Source: an uncultured Planctomycetaceae bacterium (GTDB taxonomy: Bacteria > Planctomycetota > Planctomycetia > Pirellulales > Thermoguttaceae). Taken from it: a stretch of 49,399 bases of DNA. The position numbers and the translations under genes were made by a program. Below are positions 1,238 to 34,905 of this stretch, one piece after another. The stretch lies in NCBI GenBank assembly GCA_964547995.1, contig CAZJRB010000045.1, positions 1 to 49,399 on the forward strand, in the 5' to 3' direction. The stretch's first letter is position 1, and each line of letters begins with the position of its first letter. The notes beneath the pieces were generated by a model. That model was not told where the DNA came from, did no database searches, and was given only the letters and a program-made list of their open reading frames with translations.

Positions 1238-1265
1238 CGTTTGTATTTCTCAAAGGGAGTGTGGT

Positions 1266-1466: not shown

Positions 1467-1474
1467 GGAGTGCG

Positions 1475-1726
1475 ATGGGATTGGTGTTGGCCAACGGTGA
1501 GGGTGGCGTCGGAGTTCCGGCAGCCGTAGCTGCGCTCCGGGAAGGGCGTTCGGCACTGGATTTCCTCGAGGAAGGTATCCGTATTGTAGAACTCGATCCG
1601 ACGGCAAGGACGGTCGGTTTCGGAGGCGCACCGAATATGTTGGGCCAAATGGAGTGCGACGCCTCTATTATGTGCGGTGCGTCGCTCAGAAGTGGAGCCG
1701 TTGGCGCACTAAGCGTCCGCACATAA
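1475..1726 (+). pseudogene. isoaspartyl peptidase/L-asparaginase (Ntn-hydrolase) N-terminal fragment, truncated by IS copy 2
   Basis: MGLVLANGEGGVGVPAAVAALREGRSALDFLEEGIRIVELDP...GFGGAPNMLGQMECDASIMCG matches the asparaginase N-terminus. The ORF ends after ~83 aa at a stop supplied by the IS left end (acataaataacctgaacaa). Confidence 0.55.
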
Positions 1727-2868
1727 ATAACCTGAACAACTGATATTGGTAGAATCGACCGGATACATTATAAAATAGGGAATGGATGACGCTAAGATTA
1801 TTGCTCGTATCCGGCGCAAGTATCGAGCGCTTGCTGTGGAAATGGATGAACGCATCCGGCGCCAGTGGGCGGCGGCGGAAGCTCGTGATTTGAGGTATGG
1901 CGGGGTTTCGGCCGTCGCGCGTGCTACGGGACTTTCTCGGACAACCATCACGGCAGGACTGCGAGAACTCAAGCTGCCTGCCAAGAAACGTGCGGCGGAA
2001 GCCCAGCGGATTCGACGCCCTGGGGGTGGACGGCGGTGTGCGACCGACAACGATCCTGAATTGATCGAGGCGCTGGAGGCCTTGATTGAGCCGATGACGC
2101 GAGGCGATCCGGAGTCGCCATTGCGGTGGACATGCAAGAGCACGTATCGCTTGGCCGAAGAACTGACACAACAAGATCATCCCATCGGGCCTCGCACGGT
2201 TGCCAAGTTGCTGCACGAATCGGGATATAGCCTGCAAGCCAATCGCAAAACGCGCGAAGGAAAACAACATCCCGATCGCAATGCTCAGTTTGAGTACATT
2301 AACGAACAGGTTCAGCTCTTTCAAAGACGACGCAAGCCGACCATTTCGGTCGACATGAAAAAGAAGGAACTGGTCGGGGATTTTGCCAACCGTGGACGCG
2401 AGTGGTGGGAAGAAATGGGCGCGAAGCGTTTCCCGCGAGCGCGGCATTTGTTGATCACCGCCGATGGCGGGGGCAGCAACAGCCACCGCTCGCGGCTTTG
2501 GAAAATCGCCTTGCAGGAATTGGCGGACGAGATCAACTTGAAACTCAGTGTGTGTCATTTTCCGCCGGGTACCAGCAAGTGGAACAAGATCGAGCACCGT
2601 TTGTTTTCTTTCATCACTCAAAACTGGCGGGGCAAACCGTTGGTGAGTCGCCAAGCCATCGTGGAATTGATCAGCAGCACGACCACCCGTAAAGGGCTCA
2701 TCGTCCGTGCCGCTCTCGACACCCACACCTACGAAACGGGCATCAAGGTTCACGATGCCGAACTCGCCAACGTCAAACTAACACGGCACGACTTTCACGG
2801 TGACTGGAACTACACGATCAAACCAGCGAAATAGTTGTTCATGTTATTTCTGCGCGATCCCTAAAGAA
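1712..2868 (+). mobile_element. ISAzo13-family insertion sequence, copy 2 (~1.16 kb)
   Basis: Left end cgcacataaataacctgaacaact is an imperfect inverted repeat of right end agttgttcatgttatttctgcgcg (2835-2868). Encloses transposase ORF 1782..2834. Confidence 0.6.
1782..2834 (+). CDS. ISAzo13-family transposase with in-frame ~53-aa internal deletion spanning the DDE region (probably non-functional)
   Basis: Full-length N-terminus present. Relative to copy 1 it lacks QPQGEPEEV...VNVGVDHDTARFAARSICRW (GREW|WEEMG junction), which removes the conserved acidic residues. Confidence 0.7.
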   Translation: MDDAKIIARIRRKYRALAVEMDERIRRQWAAAEARDLRYGGVSAVARATGLSRTTITAGLRELKLPAKKRAAEAQRIRRPGGGRRCATDNDPELIEALEALIEPMTRGDPESPLRWTCKSTYRLAEELTQQDHPIGPRTVAKLLHESGYSLQANRKTREGKQHPDRNAQFEYINEQVQLFQRRRKPTISVDMKKKELVGDFANRGREWWEEMGAKRFPRARHLLITADGGGSNSHRSRLWKIALQELADEINLKLSVCHFPPGTSKWNKIEHRLFSFITQNWRGKPLVSRQAIVELISSTTTRKGLIVRAALDTHTYETGIKVHDAELANVKLTRHDFHGDWNYTIKPAK

Positions 2869-2892: not shown

Positions 2893-3085
2893 GCGACAAG
2901 TCCCTCTGTGCCAACATGAGTGAGACAACTGCCTCCTGATTTATTAGAGTAGAGGGCGAAAGGAGGCGAGCCCTTGATGGAACGCACAGAATCGGTTGGT
3001 GAAGAACGAACTGTCCCCACGCCAGAGGTACTGGAAAAACCGGTGCGGCGGCGGTTCACCGTAGAGTACAAGACGCGGATCCTGG
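2893..3085 (+). mobile_element. IS3-family terminal fragment (5' end plus OrfA N-terminus), solo remnant
   Basis: MMERTESVGEERTVPTPEVLEKPVRRRFTVEYKTRIL...LLRREGLYSSYLTTWRRQRD is a typical IS3 OrfA HTH N-terminus. The ~190-bp block is ~97% identical to an inverted copy at 47891..48078. The OrfA-like reading frame continues to ~3200 in this copy only. Confidence 0.5.
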
Positions 3086-5064
3086 CCGAGGCGGATGCCT
3101 GCGCGGAGCCGGGGATGCTTGGCGAATTGCTCCGGCGTGAGGGGCTCTACTCGTCGTATTTGACCACCTGGCGAAGGCAACGTGACGATCTCAATACCAA
3201 GGTTGCGGAAATTTCCAAAGCCGCTGCGGAAGTGAAACCAGCACTTGCTACCCTTGATACAAACCCTGCTGATCCAGCAGCCAATCTTGCCGTTGGCAGG
3301 TACTACTACTGCTTGATGAAAGGGGATTGGGCGAAAGGTGTGTCCATGTTGGCATTGAGCAGCGATCCGACAATCAAGGTATTAGCAGAGAAGGAGCTTC
3401 AGGGAGTCACCGCAGCAAATGACCAGGTTGCTTTGGCCGATGGCTGGTGGGCATTGGCAGAAAATGAGACTGGCACAGCCAAAGAACAACTCCAAGCACA
3501 TGCCGCTGGTTGGTACAAACAGGCGTTACCCCAGTTGGGTGGATTGGTGAAGGCGAAGGTTGAGAAGCGGTTGAACGAGGCTCCGGCGGTGGGGGAAATC
3601 TCGTTCAAGCCGACTATTCCTCCAACACCGAAGAGGGAACGCTTGGACCCGACCAGCGTGAGGCTTCTGAGGACGCTTGAGCATGACGATGCCGCAAGGA
3701 GTATTGCCTTTAGCCCGGACAGTTCCACTTTGGCTTCAGGAGGCTATGACACAAAGGTGAGACTTTGGAACGTAGCAACTGGGCAAATTCAAAGGACGCT
3801 CTCGGGGCATCGCTACTGGATATTGTGCGTCCGCTTTAGCCCGGACGGATCGACACTGGCATCCGGCAGCATGGACAGGACAACGAGGCTTTGGGATGTG
3901 ACGAGTGGACAGCTTCGGAAGATACTGAAAGCAAACAACCGGGTTTGTGCTGTCGCCTTTAGCCCGGATGGTTCAACTTTGGCTTCAGGAGGCTACGATA
4001 CAGCCGTGAGACTCTGGGATGTGAAAACCGGGATAGTCCGTAGAACCTTGCAAGGACATGCTGCCGTAGTTGGATCTGTCGCGTTCAGCCCGGATGGTTC
4101 AATGCTGGCTTCGGCAGGTGGTGACAAGACAATTAGGCTGTGGGGCGTTGAATCTGGTCGGCATCGTACGACACTTACCGGTCACGAAGCGGGCGTGAAA
4201 TGCGTCTTCCATCCCAATCTTCCGATTATTGCTTCCGCGAGTTCTGATGGAACAGTCAGATTGTGGGATAGCGTCAGTGGCCAGCTTCGTGAGACAGTCG
4301 ATGCGAAATCCAGAAGCGTATACGACGTTGCGTTCAGCCCCGATGGATCGATCCTGGCTACTGTGGGAGAGGCTGGCATGAATCTTTGGTCCGTGTCGCG
4401 GCAAGGCCGGTGTTCAGCCCGTCATACGCCAGTCGGTGAACAAGGCAAAGTCCTTTGTATGGCCTTCAGCCCGGATGGTTCCATGCTGGCTTCCGGACAT
4501 CCCGACAAGACGATCAAGCTGTGGGGCCGTTCGGCAAGGAGTGGCGATACGACTGGCAAAGAACCTGTACCGAGTTCAGGCGGCGGTTCGAGACCACCAA
4601 AAGAGCTTTCAATCGACCTCGGCAACGGCGTCAAGATGGAGTTCGTCTTGATCCCGGCTGGCGAGTTCATGATGGGGTCGTCGGAGGCGGAGCGGAAGAT
4701 CGCGCTGGCTCAGGAAACCGCGGCCTGGGCGAAAGAGAAGATTCCGACCGAGGGCCCGCAGCACCGCGTCAAGATCACAAAGCCGTTTTACTTGGGCAAG
4801 TACGAAGTGACTCAGGCACAGTGGCAGGCGGTGATGGGGAACAACCCGTCGAAGTACAAGGCCCCGACCAATCCGGTCGAGTAGGTGAATTGGGAGGATA
4901 TCCAGCAGTTTTTGGCGAAGATGAACACGGCGTTCGAGAAGAAAGGGATGGTGTTCGGTCTTCCAACGGAGGCGGGCTGGGAATACGCCTGTCGCGCGGG
5001 AACAACGACGGCGTTTAGCTTGGAAAACCCAAACCGAAAAGGCGGCGTTGGCGGCGAGTGTTAG
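2974..5064 (+). pseudogene. chimeric pseudogene: IS3 OrfA fragment fused to a decayed paralog (helical region, WD40, FGE-sulfatase) of the C-terminal half of the 1787-aa protein at 24994..30357
   Basis: From DTNPADPAANLAVGRYYYC onward it aligns with aa ~780-1560 of ORF 24994..30357 (WD40 repeats, then LIPAGEFMMGSSEAE...NPVE). An in-frame TAG at 4882-4884 replaces the Arg of NPVERVNW; the FGE-like domain then continues in frame and terminates early ([20 protein letters not shown]). Confidence 0.55.
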
Positions 5065-7602: not shown

Positions 7603-7675
7603 GCCCCGTTCGTCTAACGGTTCAGGACAGCGGACTTTCGATCCGCAAACAGGGGTTCGATTCCCCTACGGGGTA
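7603..7675 (+). tRNA. tRNA-Glu(TTC)
   Basis: Cloverleaf: acceptor gccccgt/acggggt (G1:U72), anticodon stem gcgga/tccgc with loop cTTTCga, T-arm agggg-TTCGATT-cccct. Confidence 0.55.
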
Positions 7676-7682
7676 CTTAAAG

Positions 7683-7776
7683 CAGAACGTGGCGAAGCCT
7701 GGTATCGCGCCGGGCACCGACGCGCAGCGTTGGTCCGGGGGCCAGGAGATCACCGGTTCAAATCCGGTCGTTCTGA
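7683..7776 (+). tRNA. atypical 94-nt class-II-like tRNA-like gene (family member A); anticodon unresolved
   Basis: Perfect 7-bp acceptor cagaacg/cgttctg, D-arm gcga-AGCCTGGTA-tcgc, T-arm accgg-TTCAAAT-ccggt. The central stem-loop ccgac-GCGCAGC-gttgg has no U at position 33. Shares the block gccgggcaccgNcgcgNagcgNtggtc with 7813..7905. Confidence 0.4.
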
Positions 7777-7812
7777 CTTCGATTGGCTTGACGGGCGAAA
7801 CGAAAAAACAAC

Positions 7813-7905
7813 CGGGATGTAGGGCAGCGGCAAGCCCGCCGGGCACCGCCGCGGAGCGGTGGTCGTGGGAACACGAGATCGTGGGTTCGAGTCCCACCTT
7901 CCCGA
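7813..7905 (+). tRNA. atypical 93-nt class-II-like tRNA-like gene (family member B); loop gcGGAgc (Ser-GGA-like?)
   Basis: Acceptor cgggatg/cttcccg (one mismatch), T-arm gtggg-TTCGAGT-cccac, central stem ccgcc/ggtgg with loop GCGGAGC, variable hairpin tcgtg-GGAA-cacga. A compensatory change relative to member A (a:t to c:g) supports the central stem. Confidence 0.4.
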
Positions 7906-7931
7906 CTGAACAAAAACGGTAGTCGAGGGCT

Positions 7932-7989
7932 GGTAGCCCAGACACGGCTGATAACCGAGTTGCGCTGAGTTCGATTCTCAGGGCTACCA
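7932..7989 (+). tRNA. truncated tRNA-like gene (58 nt, no D-arm; Ile-GAT-like loop CTGATAA); probable pseudogene
   Basis: Acceptor ggtagcc/ggctacc and T-arm ctgag-TTCGATT-ctcag are perfect, but only 26 nt lie between acceptor and T-stem. Confidence 0.3.
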
Positions 7990-8044
7990 CTAAGGAGGAT
8001 GAACATGCTGCACAGATTGAAACGAATAGGTCCGATCCATCGAC

Positions 8045-8117
8045 GGGGTCGTGGCCGAATTGGAGAGGCACCGGACTTTTAATCCGGCTTATGCGGGTTC
8101 GAGTCCCGCCGGCCCCA
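8045..8117 (+). tRNA. tRNA-Lys(TTT)
   Basis: Acceptor ggggtcg/cggcccc, anticodon arm ccgga-CTTTTAA-tccgg, T-arm gcggg-TTCGAGT-cccgc. Confidence 0.65.
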
Positions 8118-8119
8118 CT

Positions 8120-8267
8120 GGGAGCGTAGCTCAGTGGTCGGAGCAGGACTCCTTTAGAGGCGTGCAGGCGGGCGAAGTCGTTACATGTGAGAGGCGTGAC
8201 AGGCCAACTCGGGCTTGGCATAAGACATGAAAGGCCCAGGCCGGAGGTTCGATTCCTCCCGCTCCTA
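8120..8267 (+). tRNA. interrupted tRNA-like gene: canonical 5' half and 3' T-arm/acceptor separated by a ~70-nt insertion containing a 13-nt direct repeat; probable pseudogene
   Basis: 5' gggagcg-TA-gctc-AGTGGTCG-gagc pairs with 3' ...ggagg-TTCGATT-cctcc-cgctcct. The insert contains gagaggcgtgCcagg (8156-8170) and gagaggcgtgAcagg (8189-8203). Confidence 0.3.
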
Positions 8268-8275
8268 TTACGAAT

Positions 8276-8348
8276 GGGACTGTGGCAGACAAGGTAATGC
8301 ACCGGTCTCTTAAACCGGACGATGTGGGTTCGATGCCCACCGGTCCCA
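8276..8348 (+). tRNA. tRNA-Lys(CTT)
   Basis: Acceptor gggactg/cggtccc, anticodon arm ccggt-CTCTTAA-accgg, T-arm gtggg-TTCGATG-cccac. Confidence 0.65.
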
Positions 8349-8360
8349 CTGAAACAACAA

Positions 8361-8432
8361 GCACTGGTCGTTCAGCGGCAAGGACACCGCACCCGTAATG
8401 CGGCGACGAGGGTTCGAGTCCCTCCCGGTGCT
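8361..8432 (+). tRNA. tRNA-Thr(CGT), C at position 33
   Basis: Acceptor gcactgg/ccggtgc, anticodon arm ccgca-CCCGTAA-tgcgg, T-arm gaggg-TTCGAGT-ccctc. Confidence 0.5.
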
Positions 8433-8508
8433 CTTGGCTCTTTGACAATTTGGTGCCAACTGTAGTGCCCATGATGTAGCGGCAGCCTGTCGCCTTGCCA
8501 TGGCGGAC

Positions 8509-8534
8509 GGACCACCGCTACGCGGCGGTGCCCG
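8509..8534 (+). repeat. 26-nt direct repeat of the tRNA-like block at 7503-7528, within a tRNA-remnant region (8440-8585)
   Basis: ggaccaccgctacgcggcggtgcccg is identical at both loci. Followed by a T-loop-like ggttcaactcc with no foldable cloverleaf. Confidence 0.5.
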
Positions 8535-8585
8535 GTTCAACTCCCGCTGGGCGCTCTGGCGATCGTGCTTGCACGGTCTGCGAAT

Positions 8586-8659
8586 CAGGATGTAGGAAAG
8601 CCTGGAAATCCGCCGGTTTTGGGAACCGGAAAACGTGGGTTCAAATCCCACCATCCTGA
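8586..8659 (+). tRNA. tRNA-Pro(TGG)
   Basis: Acceptor caggatg/catcctg, anticodon arm ccggt-TTTGGGA-accgg, T-arm gtggg-TTCAAAT-cccac. Confidence 0.6.
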
Positions 8660-8668
8660 CTGACACGA

Positions 8669-8737
8669 TCCGGTGTGGCCAAACGGTAAGGCGGCCTGTT
8701 AAGCCGAAGATTGGGGGTTCGATTCCTCCCACCGGAG
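8669..8737 (+). tRNA. tRNA-Asn(GTT)-like (short D-arm, U1:A72)
   Basis: Acceptor tccggtg/caccgga, anticodon loop CTGTTAA on stem cggc/gccg, T-arm ggggg-TTCGATT-cctcc. Confidence 0.4.
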
Positions 8738-8766
8738 CCTTTTCGAGACAACGGTGTCTTGATTGA

Positions 8767-8841
8767 TGCGGTGGGGCCTGTGCTGGAACGGGCTGGCGGC
8801 TCTGAACCGTCGTGACGCAGGTTCGATTCCTGCCGCCGCAG
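8767..8841 (+). tRNA. tRNA-Gln(CTG)
   Basis: U1:A72 acceptor tgcggtg/cgccgca, anticodon arm ggcgg-CTCTGAA-ccgtc, T-arm gcagg-TTCGATT-cctgc. Confidence 0.6.
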
Positions 8842-8850
8842 CTAGCAGAC

Positions 8851-8935
8851 GGAAGTCATCCGGCTGGATGAGGAGCCTGTCCCGAAAACAGGTGGTGGCG
8901 TTGCCCACTTGCGAGTTCGAGTCTCGCGGCTTCCG
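8851..8935 (+). tRNA. tRNA-Ser(CGA), class II, C33
   Basis: Acceptor ggaagtc/ggcttcc, anticodon arm cctgt-CCCGAAA-acagg, variable hairpin gtgg-cgttgc-ccac, T-arm gcgag-TTCGAGT-ctcgc, G73. Confidence 0.5.
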
Positions 8936-8946
8936 CTTTGATCCAC

Positions 8947-9017
8947 ACGTCCCTGGTGTAATGGCAGCATGACTGGTTCCAACCCAGTTGGTCAGGGTTC
9001 AAGTCCTTGGGGGCGTG
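8947..9017 (+). tRNA. tRNA-Trp(CCA)
   Basis: A1:U72 acceptor acgtccc/ggggcgt, anticodon arm actgg-TTCCAAC-ccagt, T-arm caggg-TTCAAGT-ccttg, G73. Confidence 0.6.
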
Positions 9018-9030
9018 CTTTGCGACAAAC

Positions 9031-9102
9031 GGTCCCGTGGTCCAACGGCGACGACGCTTGGGTCACATCCAGGAAACGATGGTTCGACTCCATCCGGGAT
9101 CA
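9031..9102 (+). tRNA. tRNA-Val(CAC)
   Basis: Acceptor ggtcccg/cgggatc, anticodon arm cttgg-GTCACAT-ccagg, T-arm gatgg-TTCGACT-ccatc. Confidence 0.55.
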
Positions 9103-9116
9103 CTGCGAAACGAGAA

Positions 9117-9187
9117 GGTCTGTAGGTGTTCCGGCAGCACACCTCCGTGGTAAGGAGGGAGACCGGGTTCGATTCCCGGACGGACCT
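9117..9187 (+). tRNA. tRNA-Thr(GGT)
   Basis: Acceptor ggtctgt/acggacc, anticodon arm cctcc-GTGGTAA-ggagg, T-arm ccggg-TTCGATT-cccgg. Confidence 0.6.
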
Positions 9188-9197
9188 CTTGAGAAAT

Positions 9198-9269
9198 GGG
9201 CCTGCATGCCGCTGGCGGCGACTGACCCTTGCAAGGTCGGTGTGATGGGTTCGACTCCCATCAGGTCCA
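9198..9269 (+). tRNA. tRNA-Ala(TGC) with G3:U70
   Basis: Acceptor gggcctg/caggtcc, anticodon arm tgacc-CTTGCAA-ggtcg, T-arm atggg-TTCGACT-cccat, A73. Confidence 0.55.
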
Positions 9270-9281
9270 CTCAACAAGACC

Positions 9282-9352
9282 GGGCCGCTGGTCCAACGGG
9301 AAGACGCCTGGCCCGCATCCAGGCAATCGGGGTTCAATTCCCCGGCGGTCCA
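9282..9352 (+). tRNA. tRNA-Ala(CGC) with G3:U70, C33
   Basis: Acceptor gggccgc/gcggtcc, anticodon arm cctgg-CCCGCAT-ccagg, T-arm cgggg-TTCAATT-ccccg, A73. Confidence 0.5.
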
Positions 9353-9363
9353 CTCGATTTGGC

Positions 9364-9434
9364 GGGCTCATGGTCCAACGGGAAGACACCAGTTCGGCAG
9401 ACTGGAAATCCGGGGTCAATTCCCGGTGGCTCCT
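9364..9434 (+). tRNA. tRNA-Ala(GGC)-like (G3:U70; atypical GTCAATT T-loop, 4:69 mismatch, C33)
   Basis: Anticodon arm ccagt-TCGGCAG-actgg, T-arm ccggg-GTCAATT-cccgg. Backbone paralogous to 9282..9352. Confidence 0.4.
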
Positions 9435-9441
9435 CTGAAAT

Positions 9442-9527
9442 GGAAGGTAGCCGGATACGGTTCGCCGGGCCGGTTTGCTAAACCGTGCGACCTGCGGGTC
9501 ATGTGGGTTCAAATCCCATGCCTTCCG
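9442..9527 (+). tRNA. tRNA-Ser(GCT), class II
   Basis: Acceptor ggaaggt/gccttcc, anticodon loop TTGCTAA, variable hairpin gacc-tgcg-ggtc, T-arm gtggg-TTCAAAT-cccat, G73. Confidence 0.5.
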
Positions 9528-9532
9528 CTTAT

Positions 9533-9604
9533 GGCTCGATGGTGAAACGGACATCATCCCTCGCTTCGAACGAGGTGTTCCGGGTTCGAGTCCTGGTCGG
9601 GCTA
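9533..9604 (+). tRNA. tRNA-Arg(TCG)
   Basis: Acceptor ggctcga/tcgggct, anticodon arm cctcg-CTTCGAA-cgagg, T-arm ccggg-TTCGAGT-cctgg. Confidence 0.6.
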
Positions 9605-9606
9605 CT

Positions 9607-9726
9607 TGTTGAGTTGAGAGTCGAGAGCGGAGAGTCGAGAGTAGGAAATCGGCGTGGGGACCGCCAGCTCCCAGCTCTCGACTCTGGACTCTCAACTCTC
9701 AACTCTGGACTCTCAACTCTCGACCC
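9607..9726. repeat. ~120-bp imperfect palindrome built from 7-mer microsatellite units (GAGAGTY on the left arm, ACTCTSR on the right arm) between tRNA-Arg and tRNA-His
   Basis: Left arm gttgagttgagagtcgagagcggagagtcgagagt. Right arm ctcgactctggactctcaactctcaactctggactctcaactctcgac is its approximate reverse complement, so the two form a long hairpin. Confidence 0.6.
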
Positions 9727-9729
9727 TAT

Positions 9730-9804
9730 GGTGTCCGTGGTGTAGCGGTTGCTGCACGCCTGGCTGTGAACCAGGAGGTAAGGGTTCGACTCCCTTCGGA
9801 TACC
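9730..9804 (+). tRNA. tRNA-His(GTG) with encoded G-1
   Basis: G-1 then gtgtccg/cggatac, anticodon arm cctgg-CTGTGAA-ccagg, T-arm aaggg-TTCGACT-ccctt, C73. Confidence 0.65.
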
Positions 9805-9810
9805 CTTGAT

Positions 9811-9884
9811 GCCGACGTAGCTCGACTTAGCAAGGCGCCGGTCTTGTAAACCGGATGATGCTGGTGCAAATCCAGTCGTCGGCT
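9811..9884 (+). tRNA. tRNA-Thr(TGT) (T-loop TGCAAAT)
   Basis: Perfect acceptor gccgacg/cgtcggc, anticodon arm ccggt-CTTGTAA-accgg. Confidence 0.55.
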
Positions 9885-9970
9885 CCTTTTGAGTGCTTGG
9901 AGCTTCAAATGAGGTTCCGGGAGCGAACCAAGATCAGGTGCCTTGCATCGTTACATAGTAAGAGTGAGAG

Positions 9971-10043
9971 GTCCCGATGGTGTAATGGATCGCACAAGAC
10001 CCTCCTAAGGTCTTGGTCCTGGTTCGACTCCAGGTCGGGACAC
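9971..10043 (+). tRNA. tRNA-Arg(CCT)
   Basis: Acceptor gtcccga/tcgggac, anticodon arm agacc-CTCCTAA-ggtct, T-arm cctgg-TTCGACT-ccagg. Confidence 0.6.
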
Positions 10044-10052
10044 CTTGAAATT

Positions 10053-10124
10053 GGCCCGTGGGTGTGCCGGACAGCATGTCAGCTTCCGAAGCTGTTGGAC
10101 CAGGTTCGACTCCTGGACGGGCTA
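10053..10124 (+). tRNA. tRNA-Arg(CCG)
   Basis: Acceptor ggcccgt/acgggct, anticodon stem cagc/gctg with loop TTCCGAA, T-arm ccagg-TTCGACT-cctgg. Confidence 0.55.
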
Positions 10125-10137
10125 CTGGACAAAGACG

Positions 10138-10208
10138 GCCTGCGAGTGTGACGGATGGCACGGCAGATTTCGGATCTGCAAGACGGGGTTCGATTCCTCG
10201 GCGGGCTA
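10138..10208 (+). tRNA. tRNA-Arg(TCG), second copy
   Basis: Acceptor ggcctgc/gcgggct, anticodon arm gcaga-TTTCGGA-tctgc, T-arm cgggg-TTCGATT-cctcg. Confidence 0.5.
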
Positions 10209-10216
10209 CTAAATAC

Positions 10217-10290
10217 GTTCTCGGAGTGTGCCGGATTTCGCACGCGACCCTGCGAAGGTCGAGGACCAGGTTCGATTCCTGGCGAGGACA
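10217..10290 (+). tRNA. tRNA-Arg(GCG)
   Basis: Acceptor gttctcg/cgaggac, anticodon arm cgacc-CTGCGAA-ggtcg, T-arm ccagg-TTCGATT-cctgg. Shares the gtgtgNcgga D-arm backbone with the three preceding Arg tRNAs. Confidence 0.55.
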
Positions 10291-10379
10291 CTTACTTGCA
10301 GTAGGGCGACATGACGGCACAAGTCGAGTACAATACGACTGTGCTATCTCCGTAAGAACTCTCACCGCCAGGTGCAACA

Positions 10380-11192
10380 ATGACGAAGCACGAACCCCAC
10401 GTTCCAGCAAACGAAGTGGACCACCATGTGTTTTCGCTCCTGCAACTGGTGATTCGGAAGTCAAGTGACTGTAGCGCAAAGGATGAGGCATCGCGCGCGC
10501 TGCTCTACTTTTTGGTGCGTGTGGCCAACACGTGGTGCTCAATCAGAACGCTTCGACAGCACAGCCCTAGTGAGCAGGTATTCATGGTTGACGCGGGTAC
10601 GCTACTTCGGGCGATGTACGATGCGTGTTTTCAGGCCGAATACGTAGCCCACGATCCTGCTTGCATCAATGCGCGAGCGAACGACTACCTGGAATACGAG
10701 CATGTCGAACGATACAGGATTTCGAGGAAAGTCCTCGGCCACAATACGCAGCTTGCCAACAGATTGAAGTCGTCGGCCAAGCGGCCGGAGGGCGAAAAGA
10801 GGGTCCAGAGTGAATACGAACGAGTGAAAGACAAATACTTTCTGGAGAAGCGGCAGTCCGACAGAACCGTGAAACGCGGTCCCCGAACCCGGAGCACGTG
10901 GTACAAAGGCGATTTGTCAGCGCTTGCAGATAGCCTCGGTAAACGAGCAGAATACGATACGTTCGTTGCAGTGTTTAACGGGTGCGTTCACTCAAGTGCT
11001 CTTGCAGCCCAGACGGGGCCCGTGGTGTCGCCGCAACATGTGCTCACCCTGGCGTCGAAGATCGCTGCTCGGGTGGCCCGGCTAAATGCACGGCACAATC
11101 ACATCGACATGGGGGACTTCTACGGTCCGATTATGGACGCTCTATGCAAGAATTTTCTGGTCAGTGTCGCTGAAGGAGGGACCGGTGCGTGA
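10380..11192 (+). CDS. hypothetical protein (270 aa, predicted all-alpha) embedded in the tRNA array; lower GC than surroundings
   Basis: Uninterrupted ORF with tRNA genes on both sides. I did not recognise a conserved domain from the translation. Confidence 0.5.
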   Translation: MTKHEPHVPANEVDHHVFSLLQLVIRKSSDCSAKDEASRALLYFLVRVANTWCSIRTLRQHSPSEQVFMVDAGTLLRAMYDACFQAEYVAHDPACINARANDYLEYEHVERYRISRKVLGHNTQLANRLKSSAKRPEGEKRVQSEYERVKDKYFLEKRQSDRTVKRGPRTRSTWYKGDLSALADSLGKRAEYDTFVAVFNGCVHSSALAAQTGPVVSPQHVLTLASKIAARVARLNARHNHIDMGDFYGPIMDALCKNFLVSVAEGGTGA

Positions 11193-11226
11193 GTCTCAAG
11201 ACCGACACGCTTCAGGAGCAATACAT

Positions 11227-11298
11227 GACGCTGGAGCCAGACGGCACGGCAACCGGCTGCAACCCGGTCTTTAGTGGGTTCGACTCCCACCGGCGTCT
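11227..11298 (+). tRNA. tRNA-Cys(GCA)
   Basis: Acceptor gacgctg/cggcgtc, anticodon arm accgg-CTGCAAC-ccggt, T-arm gtggg-TTCGACT-cccac. Confidence 0.6.
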
Positions 11299-11402
11299 CT
11301 TTCGTGTGCGGTTGATCCGTCTTTTCCAGCGGCGCACTGGCCGTGAGCCCTCGTTTGGCAGTTGGCTTTGTGTGTCCCGTGAATGGTTTCGACAAAAGGC
11401 GG

Positions 11403-11475
11403 TTTAGGGTTAGCTCAGTTGGCAGAGCACCAGACCGTTAATCTGGCTGTCACGGGTTCGATTCCCGTACCACCG
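11403..11475 (+). tRNA. tRNA-Asn(GTT)-like with non-complementary acceptor ends (last ~4 nt of the 3' strand replaced); possible pseudogene or att-site remnant
   Basis: Canonical TA-gctc-AGTTGGCA-gagc D-arm, anticodon arm ccaga-CCGTTAA-tctgg, T-arm acggg-TTCGATT-cccgt. The 5' strand ttagggt pairs with 3' accaccg only at positions 5-7. Confidence 0.4.
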
Positions 11476-11934: not shown

Positions 11935-13041
11935 ATGTTCCCGTTCAAGAGAATCAAGATCCGAAGCTACGAGATCGGCCTGTACTTCCGCGACCGCGAG
12001 TTCCGGGGCCTGCTCGGCGAAGGTCGGCACTGGCTGTTCGATCCGCTGTGCAAGGTCCGTGTTGAAATCGTTTCGCAGCGCGACCCGTGGCTGGTCCACG
12101 ATAAGCTTGACTTGATCGTCAAGTCGGGTGCGCTGAAGGACCGCGCCGTCGTGCTCGATCTGAAGGACCACCAGCGCGGCCTGGTCCGGGTCGAAGGCCG
12201 CTTCAGCCACGTCCTGCCGCCGGGCCTGTACGCCTACTGGACCGGCCAGAAGGACGTCGAGGTGGAAGTGGTCGACGCCCGGAAGGTCCGTTTCGAGCAC
12301 GATCAGCTCCCGGTCATTGTGCGCTCGCAGATGGCCAACCGCGTGTTGGACGTCTGCCGGGTCGAGCGGGACCGCATCGGCGTTCTCTTCCAGGATGGCG
12401 AGTACGTCGACACGCTGGCGCCGGGCCTGTACGCCTTCTGGCGCGACGTGGCTGACGCCAAGGTCGTCGAGGTCGACATGCGCGAGACGATGGTCGACGT
12501 CAGCGGTCAGGAGATCATGACCGCCGACAAGGTGACGTTGCGCATGAACGCGGTGGTGACCTACCGCATCGTCGATGCACGTCAGGCGCTGAGTGCGACG
12601 GACGACGTCCGGCAGGCGCTGTACCGCGAGACACAGTTGGCCCTGCGTGCCGTCGTGGGCGCCCGCGAACTCGACGCCTTCCTGACGGACAAGGATGCTG
12701 TGGCCGGCGACATCGAAGAGTTGGTGCGGCGCCGAGCGGATGAGTTGGGTCTGAAGATCATCTCGGTGGGTATCCGCGATGTGATCCTGCCGGGCGACAT
12801 GAAGGACCTGATGAACAAGGTCACGGAGGCGAAGAAGGCAGCCGAGGCCAACCTGATCGCCCGACGCGAGGAAACGGCGGCGATGCGCAGCCAGGCCAAC
12901 ACGGCCAAGCTGCTTGAAGACAGCCCGACGCTCATGCGGCTCCGGGAACTGGAGGTCTTGGAGAAGATCGCCACGGCGGGCGACTTGAAGATCGTCTTGG
13001 GCGAGAAGGGCCTGGCCGAGCGGGTTGTGAACCTGCTGTGA
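11935..13041 (+). CDS. SPFH/band-7 (stomatin/prohibitin-like) domain protein
   Basis: C-terminal half has the SPFH signature (VTLRMNAVVTYRIVD...GIRDVILPGDM...KKAAEANLIARREE). Confidence 0.7.
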   Translation: MFPFKRIKIRSYEIGLYFRDREFRGLLGEGRHWLFDPLCKVRVEIVSQRDPWLVHDKLDLIVKSGALKDRAVVLDLKDHQRGLVRVEGRFSHVLPPGLYAYWTGQKDVEVEVVDARKVRFEHDQLPVIVRSQMANRVLDVCRVERDRIGVLFQDGEYVDTLAPGLYAFWRDVADAKVVEVDMRETMVDVSGQEIMTADKVTLRMNAVVTYRIVDARQALSATDDVRQALYRETQLALRAVVGARELDAFLTDKDAVAGDIEELVRRRADELGLKIISVGIRDVILPGDMKDLMNKVTEAKKAAEANLIARREETAAMRSQANTAKLLEDSPTLMRLRELEVLEKIATAGDLKIVLGEKGLAERVVNLL

Positions 13042-13156: not shown

Positions 13157-13228
13157 ACCGGGGTGGAGCAGTGGTAGCTCGCAAGGCTCATAACCTTGAG
13201 GTCGTGGGTTCGAATCCCTCTCCCGGCA
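13157..13228 (+). tRNA. tRNA-Met(CAT), initiator-like (1:72 mismatch, TG-GAGC D-arm as in tRNA-fMet)
   Basis: Anticodon arm caagg-CTCATAA-ccttg, T-arm gtggg-TTCGAAT-ccctc, acceptor accgggg/tcccggc with A1xC72. Confidence 0.55.
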
Positions 13229-13274
13229 CTCGGATGGCCCTGTTCTGGAATTCTTCACGGTAAGATTATTCTTC

Positions 13275-14018
13275 TCAGGCAAGCCGCAACTGCACGAGGA
13301 ACTTGCTTACCGCGTCCCGGTCCCGGTCTTCCGGCAGCGTCGATTCCTCGAACGCCCGATCAAGCTGGGCCTCCAGTTCCGCCAGCCGGGTCGCGTGCTC
13401 CCCCCAATCGAGGTCAACCGATGCCTGCTCAGTCGTCTTCTGGGCGATCAGCTCGTCGATGAACCCGAAGCCGAACTCCTCGTTGAGCCGGGGCAGGTTC
13501 GCCTCGACCTCGCCCGTCCACAGCAGGTGGATGCCGGTCATCAAGACTCGGTAGGCGTACAACACTGGCTTCGCCCTCTTGGGCTCCTCCTTCTCGATTA
13601 GCTTGCGCTGCGTGGCATAGAAACCCCGGTAATGGTGATAGTGGTGCCGCGTGATGCACCGGCGGGCCAGCGGTCGCAATTCGTTGAGGAACTCCTGGCC
13701 CATGACGACGATCGGCGAAAAGACCTGCTCCAGGATGTACCCGTTGTTCTTCACTAACAGCCGCAGATACTTGCCCACGTCGTGGCTGACCAACTCGACC
13801 TCGGTACTGTGCAGATCGAACTCAGGCTCGATCGTCTCCCTGGGCATGCTGAGGCCCACGACGTCGCGGAGCGGCAGCTTGTGGCAGCCTCGAAGGTCAA
13901 CATCGCTGTCTGCGGATGGGAAGCCGTAGAGATGGGCGCCGCTGACGGTGACGAACAGCGGGTTGTAGTTGTGCTCCTCCACCAAGCCGCGCAGGCCGTC
14001 CATATCAAGCTCAAGCAT
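13275..14018 (-). CDS. Pol-beta-superfamily nucleotidyltransferase (COG3541/PF10127-like), paralog 1
   Basis: MLELDMDGL... VSGAHLYGFPSADSDVDLRG matches hG[GS]x9-13Dh[DE] NTase motif. Perfect SD (ggagga) upstream of ATG at 14018. Confidence 0.6.
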   Translation of the reverse strand: MLELDMDGLRGLVEEHNYNPLFVTVSGAHLYGFPSADSDVDLRGCHKLPLRDVVGLSMPRETIEPEFDLHSTEVELVSHDVGKYLRLLVKNNGYILEQVFSPIVVMGQEFLNELRPLARRCITRHHYHHYRGFYATQRKLIEKEEPKRAKPVLYAYRVLMTGIHLLWTGEVEANLPRLNEEFGFGFIDELIAQKTTEQASVDLDWGEHATRLAELEAQLDRAFEESTLPEDRDRDAVSKFLVQLRLA

Positions 14019-14091
14019 CGACCATCCTCCTTCGGGCACGGACCAGGAAGTCATCCACACGGTCGAAGTCGGGCTGATCCGGCAGTTCGGT

Positions 14092-14958
14092 CTACTCAAA
14101 GGCTTCCTGGAACTGCTGATCCAACTCCAAGGCCCGACGCTTCACTTCCTCGAACGGCAGCTTGCCGTCGCGGATCTCCAACAGCTCATCACGGTGCTCG
14201 CCCACATCGACACGGATCTCACCCGTCTCCAAGGCGGCGATCCCCGAATGGAGCAACCGGATCAGGTGCATGGCGTGCTTCGCCTTGAACGTGCCCTTGC
14301 TCTTCTGGGCATTTGCCATCCGCCGGAACTGGCTCAGGACGTATCCGGAGTAGGTCTTGTAGACGTGCTTGGACAGGAAGGCGTGTCGCATCGCACGCAG
14401 TTCCTCCGCCGTCTCGTCGGCCTTCAGCACCAGCGGGGTCCAGAGCGTCTCCAGCACGCTGGGATTGGCCTTCAGGGCAAGCCGGAGGAACTTCTCCAAC
14501 TCCCAGTAGACCTCGTCCTGGTCGTCGTCCTTGTATTCAAGTTGCTCGGGCAGCCGGCGCAGCGACCACTGTAGCCGGGCCGGCGGCAGGAAGATTCCCC
14601 GCAGGTCGTCATCGGAGTCGTCGGTGGCCAGACCGAACGCCTTCGAGCCGACCTGGCACTGGTAGATGATGTAGGGCCGGAGATCCTCGTTGACGTCGCC
14701 TAGCACATCGTCGATTTCACGCCGGCGCAGGGCCAACTCACCGAAATATGCCTTCACCGTGGCGCCGTCCGTGAACCGCACCACGTACGCCTCGTTGTTG
14801 CTTGGCGGGGCCTCGACGACGACGCTGCCGGCAGGTTTGTGCTCCTCGCCGTTGGGCAGGGCTTTGGCGACCTTCACGACGACCTGCGTACCGGGCGAGA
14901 TCACGAAGTCGGGTTGGAGCTTGCGGATGGAGTGCTCGTCGGTGGACATGGCCACCAC
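14092..14958 (-). CDS. Pol-beta-superfamily nucleotidyltransferase, paralog 2, with ~75-aa N-terminal extension
   Basis: GSKAFGLATDDSDDDLRGIF motif. C-terminal H..YK.Y.GY region parallels paralog 1. Confidence 0.55.
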   Translation of the reverse strand: MVAMSTDEHSIRKLQPDFVISPGTQVVVKVAKALPNGEEHKPAGSVVVEAPPSNNEAYVVRFTDGATVKAYFGELALRRREIDDVLGDVNEDLRPYIIYQCQVGSKAFGLATDDSDDDLRGIFLPPARLQWSLRRLPEQLEYKDDDQDEVYWELEKFLRLALKANPSVLETLWTPLVLKADETAEELRAMRHAFLSKHVYKTYSGYVLSQFRRMANAQKSKGTFKAKHAMHLIRLLHSGIAALETGEIRVDVGEHRDELLEIRDGKLPFEEVKRRALELDQQFQEAFE

Positions 14959-15349
14959 CTACAGATTGGATCAGTGAAACGCCCCTTCTACAGACAGCAG
15001 TCTATCAGGGGGAGTTCGCCCTGACGAAAGCCAGACACCTACTATTATGAGGGGAGATAGCAACTCGCAAGAGCCGCCTGCTTTGCCTTTCGGAGGCTCT
15101 GAGGTCCATTCTGTCGCCCACTTCCAGTCAACGGTTGGGTGGGGTTACAGCTTCCCGGCTAGCAAGCGGCATGGACGGTCTTCTATGGCATCTGAGGGCA
15201 TGTCCCATCGGCATCCATTCGTTCGCCCGATTGTGGTCCCAATCGTCGTCAAAAAGGTATCACCAAAGGTATCACCGAGGCCCAAAAACGAGGAAAGGGA
15301 TCACGAATCAATCTTCGTAATCCCTTTTGTATCAATGACTTCTGTTCAG

Positions 15350-15424
15350 TCGGGGCGACTGGATTTGAACCAGCGACCTCTGCGTCCCGAACGCAGCGCT
15401 CTAGCCAGGCTGAGCTACGCCCCG
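15350..15424 (-). tRNA. tRNA-Pro(CGG)
   Basis: On the minus strand: acceptor cggggcg/cgccccg, D-arm TA-gctc-AGCCTGGCTA-gagc, anticodon arm ctgcg-TTCGGGA-cgcag, T-arm gctgg-TTCAAAT-ccagt. Confidence 0.65.
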
Positions 15425-24993: not shown

Positions 24994-27900
24994 ATGGCGG
25001 AGAAGTTCGATCCGTATCACGTGTGGTTGTCAATTTCGCCGGAAGAGCAACCCCCAACGCTCTATCGTCTGCTGGGGCTGCGGCCATTTGAGGACAACCT
25101 CGATGTGATCGAGAACGCCGCCGACCGCCAGATGACCCACCTCCGGACGTACCAGGCGGGCAAACACTCGGCCGAGTCCCAAAAGCTGCTCAACCAGATC
25201 GCCTCCGCCAAACTCAATCTGCTGAAGCCCGAGAAAAAAGCGGAATACGACAAACTACTTCGGGAACAAATGAACCTGGAAGCGGAGTCCGTGTTGGATG
25301 ACGAGTCCTCCGTGCGCCAGGAAGAACTCTCGATGACTCTGGTTGGGTTCTTGGAAGCGATCCAAGCCGAGAAGGAACAGAAAGCCGAGGGAAAGCCCGG
25401 CCACTTCGACCCGTATGAGGAATGGCTGGCCATTGCGCCGGAGGAGCAACCGCCCACGCTCTATCGACTGTTGGGACTTCGGCCGCTGGAAGACAACCGC
25501 AACACGATCAAGGACGCAGCCAAGCGGCGAACGGCCCATCTTCGGGAGTTCGTTTCGGACGAACACGGGGACGAGGCACGGAAGCTGCTGACCCAAGTCT
25601 CTTCGGCCAGACTCACGCTGCTGAATCGGAATAAGAAAGCCGATTACGACAGGTTACTTCGACAGCGGACGAAGTTGGAGGACGAAGGTTCGCAACCGGA
25701 CGAAGAGCTTTCGACCACCTTGGCGGGGTTCCTGGCAGCGGTTGACGTGGAAAAGGCAAAGCCTGCGGAACCACGAAAGCCGCCCAAGCAAAGCGAAGCT
25801 GCTACACCTGCTGATAAGGCGGCTGGGGAACGGCGGTTTATGATCGGTGCAGCGGTTGGGGTCGGTATCCTGTTGCTGCTGGTGATCGCCGTGTTGGCCG
25901 TGAAGTTCGGGGGCGGTAAGCAGGAAGAGAAGCCGAAGGAGGACAATTGGCTAGCCGACATCGGACAGCAGCGTGAATTATCAAGGCCGACAAAGCCGGC
26001 ACCGCCACAGACCCAAAAGCCCACGCCGCCTCCGCGCAAACGTTCCAGCAAGGCGCCTGCGGGAACCGACCGTGTATCTTCGCCTGAAGCACCCGTAAAG
26101 TCGGGCGGTCTTCTTGCTCATTACACATTCGACACGAACGCAAGCGACAGTCAAGGCGGCCACGACGGCAAACTCGTCGGCAACGCGTCCATCGTTAGCG
26201 ACCCTGACCGCGGCGGTGTGCTGCAACTCGACGGCGACGGCGATTACGTGTTGCTCGGGGAGTTCGGTCTGACCGGAGACGGATACTCGGTCGGCTGCTG
26301 GTTCAAGACGAGCGCCACAGGTCACCGAACGATCCTTTCGGCAGCCAGAGGGTCCGGGGGATACGCCATGTTGCTGGAAGCCAAGGAAGGCACACTGCGG
26401 TATCTCCATCGTTTCCCCTTTGGCGGAAGCAGCGGAACGGACATTTATTCGCCTGGTACATATCACGACGGGCGCTGGCACCACGTCCTCGCGGTTAAGG
26501 ATCCCGCGACGACGACACTGTATGTCGACGGGATCAAAGTGGGTTCAGCAGGGAACTCGACGACGTTTAACGCGCCCGTGGAGACTGTAGCCGGGAGACT
26601 GATTGGTGATTCTGGCCCCAGGTTCTTCGCCGGCCAGATCGACGACGTGCGCGTTTACGATCGGGCTCTCAGCCTGCAGGAGGCCGCGGAACTGGCAAAC
26701 CCAACCACCGCCCGACCCGCCGATACGGTTGCCCTTACGCCGGACGGGCTACCCGTGGAACCGCGAACACCTGACCCCGAGTCACCGACGTCTGAATCGG
26801 GAGCACCAACAGCAAAGAAACTTGCCGTCCCACCGCCGGATGAGCAACAGAAGATGGGCGAGGCGATCGAGGGTTCTTACAAGATTTCGGAGGCCCGGTC
26901 GGCGGAAGATAGACTGCGACTTGCCGGGGAATTGTTCGCGGCGGGCAAGAAGTCGCAGGGCGAGCCGGTCGAGAAATTCGTGTTGCTCCGCAAAGCAATG
27001 GAACTTGCCCAAAGCGGCGGCGATGCCGGGTTGATGATGGAAGCTGTCGATGCGATCAGTAACGAGTTTGATGTCAATGCCCTTGATGTCAAGCAGAAGG
27101 TTCTGGCCGGTTTCGCTTCGGGTGCTTCCAATCTTGAAGAGATCAAATCGTTTGTCGAAGCCACTGATCCGGTAATCGACGAGGCAATTGCCGATGGCCG
27201 CTATGATATTGCCGTGAACATCGCCGAGATAGCTTATCGGCTTGCCAGCGGAGAAGGAGATGCGGAGTTACGCAAACGAACCTATGATCGCCGGAACTCG
27301 GTTAGGAAGCTGGCTTTGAAGTGGCAGGGACTAACAGATGCCAGGAACACGTTAAAGACCACCCCCGACAATCCGGCCGCCAATCTGGCCGTAGGACGTT
27401 GGTTCTGCTTCGAGCGAGGTGATTGGAAACAGGGCTTGCCGCATCTTGCGAAGTGCAGCAGCCCCGCCTTGAAAGGCATTGCCGCCCAGGAGGTAAACTC
27501 CCCTCCGGCAACCCCCGATGCCCAGGTCAAGCTCGCCGATGCTTGGTGGAATTTGGCAGAAAAGGTCGAGGGCAAGACGAAGGATTCTTTGATGGCCCAT
27601 GCGGGCCAGTGGTATGGCAAAGCTTTAGATGGTTTACCGGAAGGTTTTGCCAAAGCGAAGGTGAAGAAGAGGTTGGAGGAGGCCGGGGAGGTTGCGGAGG
27701 TTGCTGTGGAAGGGCCGGAGGAGCCGCGTTTTGATCCAACGACCGCTAAGCTCCTGTGGACTCTTGAGGATCATAAGGCTGAAATACGGCGCGTGGCCTT
27801 CAGTCCGCAAGGCTCGATTCTCGCGTCAGCGGGCTTTGACAGCACCATAGGGCTGTGGGACGTCACCACGGGTAAGCTAGAGAAAACACTGTCGGCGCCC

Positions 27901-30357: not shown

Positions 30358-30488
30358 CAGCAGGGTAGTACAAGCGAAACACCGGCCCGCTAAACGCCGG
30401 GCTTCGGGCCGGCACGGGGAGAAGCATTACGGGCATTCCAGTGGAGATTCTTCGCTGCGCTCAGAATGACATTCCTGAAACCCGTAAG

Positions 30489-34145: not shown

Positions 34146-34905
<760 letters not shown>

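Follow-up and report, generated by a model that had tools for sequence, protein, structure and literature searches.

A conserved pair of RlaP-family nucleotidyltransferase genes, with a truncated long paralog, near an L-type tRNA array in a planctomycete contig

Two RlaP paralogs encoded side by side

Pfam family PF10127 (RlaP, RNA repair pathway DNA polymerase beta family), which comprises more than 10,000 sequences, reportedly received the name RlaP, for RNA-ligase-associated Pol-beta, from Burroughs and Aravind in 2016. The biochemistry of the family comes from two Pseudomonas enzymes, PfRlaP and PaRlaP, whose genes lie between rtcB and rtcA (Carruthers, Fatma & Huang, December 2025 preprint, PMC12776372). 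These enzymes add one or two nucleoside monophosphates (NMPs) to the 3'-OH of RNA, but not to DNA or protein, with Mn2+ as the preferred metal; given a mimic of cleaved tRNA, they act preferentially on its 5' half, and RlaP can restore the aminoacylation of a tRNA that lacks one anticodon-loop nucleotide. In the crystal structure of PfRlaP, a nucleotidyltransferase (NTase) domain and a helical domain are clamped together by the extreme C-terminal helix, and NrdC.11 of phage T4 belongs to the same family (PMC12776372). Here we describe two adjacent genes of this family, RlaP-L (long) and RlaP-S (short), found on the minus strand of a 49,399-nt stretch of DNA from an uncultured Planctomycetaceae bacterium (contig CAZJRB010000045.1 of assembly GCA_964547995.1), the whole of which is referred to as the window. 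We consider it fairly probable that they form a conserved two-gene operon for Pol-beta-type RNA 3'-terminal nucleotidyltransferases that act together in RNA-end repair.

The open reading frames (ORFs) initially called for the pair, 13275–14099 and 14092–14958, are adjacent and both lie on the minus strand; an earlier note made from the sequence alone had described the pair at 13275–14958. Both starts proved wrong. RlaP-L (14092–14949, minus strand; 285 aa as encoded) starts at ATG 14949 and not at GTG 14958, since its homologs begin with M..D.HS(F/I)RKL. RlaP-S (13275–14018, minus strand; 247 aa, full length) starts at ATG 14018 and not at TTG 14099: its M1 is invariant in 36 homologs, and a Shine-Dalgarno sequence, AAGGAGG (14026–14032, minus strand), can be read directly from the sequence 7 nt upstream of this ATG.

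Both proteins match PF10127 well above its gathering score of 23 bits: RlaP-S with an E-value of 4e-43 (148.4 bits, profile positions 6–248 of 249) and RlaP-L with an E-value of 9e-39 (134.1 bits, profile positions 7–222 of 249 only). No other NTase family in Pfam matches either of them at E<=1, and NCBIfam holds no model matching either paralog. The two proteins share 29% identity in BLASTP (E 2e-18), and hhalign of the two family alignments gives a probability of 99.2% (E 1e-19), with residues 95–314 of the long protein aligned to residues 17–249 of the short one. By sequence, RlaP-L and RlaP-S are thus paralogous Pol-beta nucleotidyltransferases of PF10127, in agreement with the earlier note, which had recognised two adjacent minus-strand paralogs and had guessed at PF10127/COG3541.

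The NTase signature reads GAHLYGFPSADSDVDLRG in RlaP-S and GSKAFGLATDDSDDDLRG in RlaP-L. It had been described with a Y and with four residues before the SD dipeptide; it is indeed present in both proteins, but the spacing from YG/FG to SD is five residues and RlaP-L has F where RlaP-S has Y. The C-terminal H.Y..Y.G region that the two were said to share is found in both, as HHYHHYRG and HVYKTYSG. The elements expected of a Pol-beta catalytic site (G[SG], DxD and a third carboxylate) are found in the pair, apart from a G-A in RlaP-S. Residues G101-S102, D113, D115 and E150 of RlaP-L are kept in 46–48 of 48 species, and D39, D41, E73, H79 and D/E80 of RlaP-S in 38–40 of 40 (39–40 of 40 for D39, D41 and D/E80 taken by themselves).

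AlphaFold2 models were computed for RlaP-S (predicted local distance difference test score, pLDDT, 81; predicted template modelling score, pTM, 0.81) and for P0002, a full-length homolog of RlaP-L that is 82% identical to it (pLDDT 75, pTM 0.59); numbers prefixed P (proteins) and L (loci) are our own handles. In both models the NTase domain precedes a helical domain, and the chain closes with a terminal helix, which spans residues 234–246 in RlaP-S and 297–313 in P0002. RlaP-L differs by an N-terminal extension of about 85–90 aa (14695–14949, minus strand, if counted as ~85 aa), which is absent from RlaP-S; the earlier note had rightly pointed to an extra domain there but had put it at about 75 aa. 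In the P0002 model, this region contains five strands (residues 22–25, 43–48, 57–61, 66–69 and 74–76; pLDDT ~77–86) and is predicted to form an SH3/Tudor-like beta-barrel. Foldseek matches of the barrel to SH3/Tudor structures are weak (E 0.01–0.06, TMt 0.6–0.78), no Pfam family matches the domain, and a sequence search with the domain alone returned six fragmentary proteins without recorded Pfam domains, none of them informative.

The layout of NTase domain, helical domain and, in RlaP-S and full-length homologs of RlaP-L, a predicted C-terminal clamp helix, together with the conserved catalytic carboxylates and the common Pfam family, relates the planctomycete pair to PfRlaP and PaRlaP, and we presume by analogy with the Pseudomonas enzymes, for which alone it has been shown, that the pair may likewise extend an RNA 3'-OH by one or two NMPs. 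There are also clear differences. The Pseudomonas genes are single and belong to an RtcR-controlled rtcB–rtcA operon, whereas the planctomycete genes form a fixed paralog pair with no ligase gene nearby, and here an SH3-like domain has been added on RlaP-L and G-A stands for G-S in RlaP-S. Nor does the similarity suffice for a direct match in the PDB sequence set: a PDB sequence search with the pair gave no match at E<=1, HalB included, and the PfRlaP structure is absent from the Foldseek matches of the pair. The best whole-chain Foldseek matches are instead Hailong HalB and the kanamycin nucleotidyltransferase (KNTase) ANT(4') (E 1e-5 to 1e-3, TM-scores 0.3–0.5), which are likewise built from a Pol-beta NTase domain and a helical domain but show no sequence-level relationship to the pair and act on other substrates, namely aminoglycosides for KNTase and dATP, polymerised to oligo-dA signals, for HalB.

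Phages carry relatives as well. RlaP-L matches phrog_388, a nucleotidyltransferase family of PHROG, with an E-value of 1e-47, and has matches in 696 phage genomes, with nrdC.11 of RB49 among them; in Streptomyces phage BRock the RlaP homolog adjoins a polynucleotide kinase, consistent with RNA repair. The phage genes differ from the planctomycete ones in being single copies without the N-terminal barrel and at ~23–36% identity, and no annotated tRNA gene was seen within 7–8 kb of the NTase gene of phages BRock and Wildcat. A phage origin of the pair was considered and set aside, as a search of IMG/VR gave a single distant relative at 24% identity.

Conservation and proposed role of the pair

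Each paralog has thousands of homologs, the best of which, at 70–84% identity, are from Thermoguttaceae, Pirellulales and other Planctomycetota. We surveyed 54 loci, with one genome per species, nearly all from Planctomycetota and a few from Myxococcota, Fibrobacteres and Verrucomicrobiota. According to tblastn, the long gene is followed by the short one in about 44 of these 54 loci, with identities that range from 82% down to 43%. In close relatives the two genes overlap by 8 nt (ATGnnTGA), the short gene starting 8 nt before the end of the stop codon of the long one, which favours coupled translation. Several long-read metagenome-assembled genomes (MAGs) show frameshifts, which we would ascribe to errors of assembly. 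In a neighbour-joining tree of the long protein the loci fall together broadly by taxonomy, which argues for mainly vertical descent, and clustering of about 1,100 ORFs across the loci left the pair itself as the only conserved protein neighbour. In one genome only, the complete Thermoguttaceae chromosome OY762224.2 (L187/L027), the pair lies directly after the prs (PRPP synthetase), L25, pth (peptidyl-tRNA hydrolase), S6, SSB and L9 genes, of which L25, S6 and L9 encode ribosomal proteins, on the same strand, a core translation context. The earlier note had named membership of a well-characterised housekeeping family with a conserved genomic context as what would speak against its view; the proteins do belong to a named and characterised family and the pair is conserved, but this is no housekeeping family of the classical kind, and the wider context varies. 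The conserved two-paralog RlaP operon, with its SH3-like domain and without a ligase partner, is a variant of a known family. A different variant of the short protein, about 390 aa long and carrying a cupin domain (PF07883), was met in eight homologs (P0166, P0168, P0174, P0175, P0185, P0196, P0210 and P0212), and at L019 (10908–12122) the short RlaP has the cupin at its C-terminus.

The earlier idea of an enzyme that modifies or repairs RNA or tRNA 3' ends agrees with the published RlaP biochemistry (PMC12776372). If the planctomycete pair acts in this way, its substrates would most plausibly be tRNA halves or tRNAs shortened by ribotoxins; nucleotide addition would restore the length of the RNA, and an RNA ligase encoded elsewhere would then reseal the break. 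The fixed gene order, the 8-nt overlap, the catalytic residues kept in both proteins and the KNTase-like fold suggest that RlaP-L and RlaP-S would be made in equal amounts and would act jointly, either as a heteromer or in two sequential steps. KNTase is an obligate dimer with composite, shared active sites, and it is this arrangement, together with the coupled gene pair, that leads us to propose a heteromer. For sequential steps, a working analogy may be found in Aquifex, Deinococcus and others, where CC addition and A addition are split between two paralogous Pol-beta tRNA nucleotidyltransferases that share successive additions to the tRNA 3' end; a comparable division of work might explain the retention of two active RlaP paralogs side by side. 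The split CCA enzymes belong to a different family (class II, PF01743), and the PF01743 PolyA_pol head domain of CCA-adding enzymes gives no Pfam match at E<=1 in RlaP-L or RlaP-S. CCA is encoded by none of the tRNA genes of the window, whether clustered or canonical, and this feature is therefore not discriminating.

Several observations weigh against this proposal of joint RNA-end repair. No gene for an RNA ligase, Pnkp, RtcB or RtcA was found near the pair, either among the genes of the window or in six Pfam-annotated relatives, and the rest of the repair pathway must therefore be assumed to act in trans. Six loci have the long gene without the short one, which does not favour a heteromer, and the preprint on PfRlaP mentions no oligomeric state (PMC12776372); the heteromer is purely our inference, by analogy. 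The G27-A28 dipeptide that replaces the usual G-S/G-G is invariant in RlaP-S. Finally, the planctomycete pair is distant from PfRlaP, and its activity on RNA 3' ends is a prediction from sequence.

A premature stop in RlaP-L and an L-type tRNA array nearby

Apart from the N-terminal barrel, two features of the locus had gone unnoticed in the earlier note, namely an in-frame TAG (14092–14094) and a tRNA array (7603–11299). The TAG ends RlaP-L at 285 aa, against 314 aa for full-length homologs, and takes the position of an Arg or a Gln in relatives (alignment of eight homologs). Beyond it, 26 codons, TELPDQPDFDRVDDFLVRARRRMVDA, have stayed intact up to the ancestral TGA (14011–14091 in all, minus strand); about 20 of the 26 match the C-terminal consensus of the family, (R/Q)TALPEQPDFxRVDxFLIRARRRMVDA. 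The ancestral TGA overlaps the ATG of RlaP-S in ATGCTTGA, and the Shine-Dalgarno sequence of RlaP-S falls inside the codons for Arg-Arg-Arg-Met in what was once the tail of RlaP-L. The lost segment corresponds to the terminal helix at residues 297–313 of the P0002 model, to which the structure of PfRlaP assigns the clamp role (PMC12776372). This helix is thus kept in RlaP-S and in full-length RlaP-L homologs and cut from the RlaP-L of the window.

The same 285-aa product is called on nine contigs from at least five samples, so that we reject a sequencing error as its cause. These nine contigs are essentially identical and represent one near-clonal strain. TAG also ends 7 of the 18 well-supported genes of the window and is an ordinary stop codon here. 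We considered recoding or suppression of the TAG by a tRNA of the array and rejected it, as no tRNA with a CUA anticodon was found in the window. The gene at 8120–8267, which ARAGORN labels tRNA-Stop(tta), is the ortholog of a tRNA-Ile(UAU), its anticodon loop carrying an insert of 75 nt, and is hardly credible as a suppressor; pyrrolysine insertion and programmed read-through at the TAG were likewise rejected, as nothing supports them. We conclude from the sequence that the TAG is a nonsense mutation, probably a recent one. By removing the clamp helix, it probably weakens RlaP-L, and it probably also uncouples the translation of RlaP-S, which is itself intact and keeps a strong Shine-Dalgarno sequence of its own.

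L-type tRNA arrays are long, have spread horizontally and go together with an HNH endonuclease gene (Tran et al. 2016, PMC4758250; Santamaria-Gomez et al. 2021, PMC8421152); translational stress induces them, as seen in Anabaena, and cleavage affects some of the tRNAs (PMC8421152). The terms nucleotidyltransferase and 'nucleotidyl' are absent from the text of both papers. In the window, an array occupies 7603–11299 on the plus strand: ARAGORN detects 26 tRNAs, and Rfam adds a tRNA-His (9731–9804) and the disrupted tRNA-Ile(UAU)-like gene (8120–8267). About 27 tRNA genes fall within the 2.7 kb from 7603 to 10291, if a tRNA-Cys that lies beyond an inserted gene is left out. We count as L-type an array of at least 20 tRNA genes at no fewer than 2 per kb, with a gene order common to other arrays; that of the window has this number and density, and shares its order with those of L011, L016, L019, L186 and others. 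The array tRNAs have diverged, tRNA-Pro(TGG), for example, being far from the canonical copy at 34158. The array of the window fits the published L-type arrays in tRNA number, divergence and common gene order, and HNH endonuclease genes occur in nearly all related arrays, but it differs from them in having no HNH gene.

The RlaP pair lies about 2 kb from the distal end of the array, and an SPFH/Band-7 gene (11935–13041, plus strand; Pfam PF01145, E 4e-29) separates the two. Arrays with 14–40 tRNAs were found 0.6–6 kb from the pair at L011, L014, L016, L018, L019, L020, L040 and L186, with the order Phe-Glu-Pro-Ile-Lys ... Trp-Thr-Arg x4-Cys; in L086, 4 kb away from the pair, a stretch of seven array tRNAs runs into the contig end, and L022 has a fragment with five. 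The adjacency thus recurs in about 10 related genomes besides the window. In most of these loci (L016, L019, L186, L020, L040) the pair is on the same strand as the array, whereas in the window it is inverted relative to the array and at L011 it lies on the array's opposite side; the SPFH gene is variably present. One MAG contig carries the unit of array, SPFH gene and RlaP pair twice, and the homology between the two copies stops just past the end of RlaP-S. All array-linked loci belong to one clade of the neighbour-joining tree, where they are interleaved with array-less loci.

A search in the other direction, in metagenomes with a 22-mer from the unusual array tRNA-Arg(GCG), returned 119 array fragments. 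Of the 15 fragments that extend 3 kb or more downstream, 1 has the RlaP pair, and of the 7 that extend 3 kb or more upstream, none has it; this argues against a link to the array, as does the fact that most RlaP pairs have no array. SPFH and HNH genes are common among these fragments. Because the adjacency is lineage-restricted and rare in the array-first search, we regard a functional link between array and pair as possible only, and on the whole improbable.

Several features of these arrays deserve mention in their own right. In many arrays (also L073, L074 and L098) the SPFH/Band-7 gene comes immediately after the tRNA-Cys that closes the array, and it is a commoner companion than the RlaP pair; orthologs at 58–81% identity lie downstream of the arrays of L011, L016, L019 and L186 and of at least 12 arrays from metagenomes. 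The HNH gene encodes a 198-aa endonuclease (56–91% identity) inside nearly all related arrays and at about 60 metagenome loci; it is found at 7742–8333 in L004/L020, 4284–4877 in L016 and 5394–5990 in L186, and in L004/L020 and L186 it sits between tRNA-His and the next downstream tRNA. Missing from the array of the window, it is nevertheless present on a variant contig of the same strain population (L008, 10056–10622). A DUF5677 gene (10380–11192) is inserted in the window array between tRNA-Arg(GCG) and tRNA-Cys, and a 52%-identical copy stands at a comparable place in metagenome locus L135, where a tRNA and the SPFH gene come next in this order.

The tRNA genes themselves include some unusual members. 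The ortholog of the array tRNA-Ile(UAU) at 8120–8267 scores 42.5 bits with Rfam over 148 nt; its anticodon-loop insertion of ~75 nt is too short for a group I intron, and the gene is therefore a pseudogene or the carrier of an unknown small insertion. Two paralogous tRNA-like genes of 94–95 nt (7683–7777 and 7813–7906) combine normal acceptor, D and T arms with a long extended anticodon arm and share the core GCCGGGCACCGnCGCG.AGCG.TGGTC; ARAGORN calls them Gly(acc) and '???', and both are under the Rfam threshold. The tRNA-His(GTG) at 9731–9804, which ARAGORN missed, scores 59 bits with Rfam. A partial tRNA (11408–11471; Rfam 50 bits, model positions 5–66) with GTT in its anticodon loop is homologous to the second 'Cys' tRNA of L011. 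In related arrays, ARAGORN calls four-base anticodons, with 8-nt loops, at 5736, 6360 and 7041 of L011 and at 3893 of L016. To our knowledge, the anticodons Arg(GCG), Arg(UCG) and Ile(UAU) present in related arrays are unusual for bacteria.

Three other readings of the pair have to be set against a conserved operon for joint RNA-end repair. One of them concerns this strain alone: the locus would be decaying, with the TAG making RlaP-L a pseudogene and the pair no longer a working unit. The loss of 27 conserved residues, including the clamp helix, and of the start/stop overlap seen in relatives points this way, and so does the reduced state of the array, where the HNH gene is missing, as are four tRNAs known from related arrays (Leu, Asp, Tyr and Phe), and where one tRNA is disrupted. 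Against it, the 26 codons after the TAG show neither frameshift nor decay, the other 285 codons of RlaP-L and the whole of RlaP-S are intact, and a truncated RlaP-L may retain activity; all contigs with the allele come, moreover, from one near-clonal strain, which gives no measure of its age. We hold local decay to be a tentative reading, somewhat unlikely on this evidence. A role in conflict appears very unlikely, whether as a MenT/AbiEii-type toxin, which the earlier note had also envisaged and which would block the acceptor ends of tRNAs, or as a producer of signals like HalB. HalB is among the best structural matches (Foldseek E 9e-6 and 8e-5), and some relatives lie in variable, defence-like regions, beside an AbiEi_2 gene and IS66 at L001 and near phage-like genes at L188. 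The resemblance to HalB, however, is confined to the fold, with TM-scores of 0.34–0.5 and a root-mean-square deviation of ~11 Å. Neither AbiEii, MenT (DUF1814-type models) nor any other defence family matches the pair in Pfam at E<=1, PADLOC gives no match, and no conserved antitoxin-like or effector gene was found beside the pair in the 54 loci, although no search was aimed at HalA, the membrane effector that partners HalB. The high and largely vertical conservation across planctomycete families, with one copy in a ribosomal-protein/pth cluster, and the assignment to RlaP, whose tested members extend RNA by 1–2 nt only (PMC12776372), also argue against a role in conflict.

The remaining reading ties the pair to the array: RlaP-L/S would be a dedicated accessory of L-type arrays, and array, SPFH gene and pair together a mobile unit for spare tRNAs and tRNA-end repair, in which the RlaPs would mend or complete 3' ends or broken anticodon loops, in array tRNAs or those of the host, when tRNA-targeting nucleases attack. 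The adjacency recurs despite rearrangements, array, SPFH gene and pair are duplicated jointly in one MAG contig, and by our estimate chance would bring array and pair into the same 20-kb neighbourhood of a multi-megabase genome in well under 1% of genomes. The cleavage of some tRNAs in stress-induced L-arrays (PMC8421152) would also fit the preference of RlaP for cleaved tRNA (PMC12776372). The restriction to one clade, on the other hand, may reflect few independent events; the sister lineages L012, L017, L021, L023 and others have the pair without an array; the metagenome search from the array side yielded it once; and in the window the pair is opposite in strand to the array and bears a nonsense mutation. 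We think such a dedicated accessory unlikely, and the pair may stand beside a horizontally spread array through a shared role in protecting translation or merely through shared ancestry within one clade. In its widest form, which we likewise doubt, array, SPFH gene and pair would make up one horizontally mobile island of translation insurance, with divergent spare tRNAs and a two-subunit enzyme that rebuilds tRNA ends after trimming by nucleases of the anticodon or acceptor kind; if true, this would be a cellular counterpart to the tRNA-plus-RNA-repair toolkits of large phages.

The reading as a conserved operon for RNA-end repair has consequences of its own. The first RlaP biochemistry, that of the December 2025 preprint, concerns single-gene, RtcB-linked members, and a deeply conserved, ligase-free form with two paralogs and an additional SH3-like domain suggests that there may be heteromeric or two-step RlaPs, or a standing role in planctomycete RNA maintenance outside the known repair operons. 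The recurrent adjacency to arrays provides a testable link between spare-tRNA elements and tRNA-end repair, which bears on resistance to tRNA-targeting toxins. If none of these readings holds, the locus would be just another pair of RlaP homologs, partly damaged in this strain.

Flanking elements and the rest of the window

The pair is flanked by convergent genes for tRNA-Met and tRNA-Pro(CGG), as the earlier note had stated; ARAGORN and Rfam both detect them. The tRNA-Met(CAT) gene (13157–13229, plus strand; Rfam 61 bits) converges with RlaP-S, whose stop codon is 45 nt away; this tRNA is unlike the array Met tRNAs of relatives, and we take it to be initiator-like from its resemblance to E. 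coli tRNA-fMet. The tRNA-Pro(CGG) gene (15349–15424, minus strand; Rfam 64.4 bits) lies upstream of RlaP-L on the same strand and is of the canonical housekeeping type, its acceptor stem being identical to that of the tRNA-Pro(TGG) at 34158. Just downstream of it, a terminator-like hairpin of 14 pairs with a T-run (15294–15327, minus strand) may separate tRNA-Pro from the RlaP operon; such matches occur at least as often in shuffled sequence, and the evidence is therefore weak. Two tandem copies of the 12-mer AAAGGTATCACC (15253–15276), noted earlier, are indeed present; they are intergenic, without evident function, and have no further copy in the window, where 0.08 matches would be expected by chance. 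No conserved regulatory motif upstream of RlaP-L was seen by eye across 19 loci.

From the flanking tRNAs and this repeat, the locus had been likened to a small tRNA-targeted islet. This idea did not hold: the 3' region of tRNA-Pro is not repeated beyond a generic T-arm similarity, no integrase gene lies between positions 7 and 16 kb of the window, and the pair is carried by about 44 other genomes, mostly without a flanking tRNA.

The rest of the window (68–2834, 2974–4884, 24994–33869, 35774–45022 and 48198–49235) contains two ISAzo13-type transposase genes and genes for several WD40-repeat proteins. Two of the latter are giant: a 1787-aa protein carries an FGE-sulfatase-like domain, and a 1126-aa protein a Ser/Thr kinase domain. 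Three GvpL/F genes form a gas-vesicle cluster with a CDC48-like AAA gene and an AAA_5 gene, and at the right edge of the window lies a gene for a tyrosine integrase.

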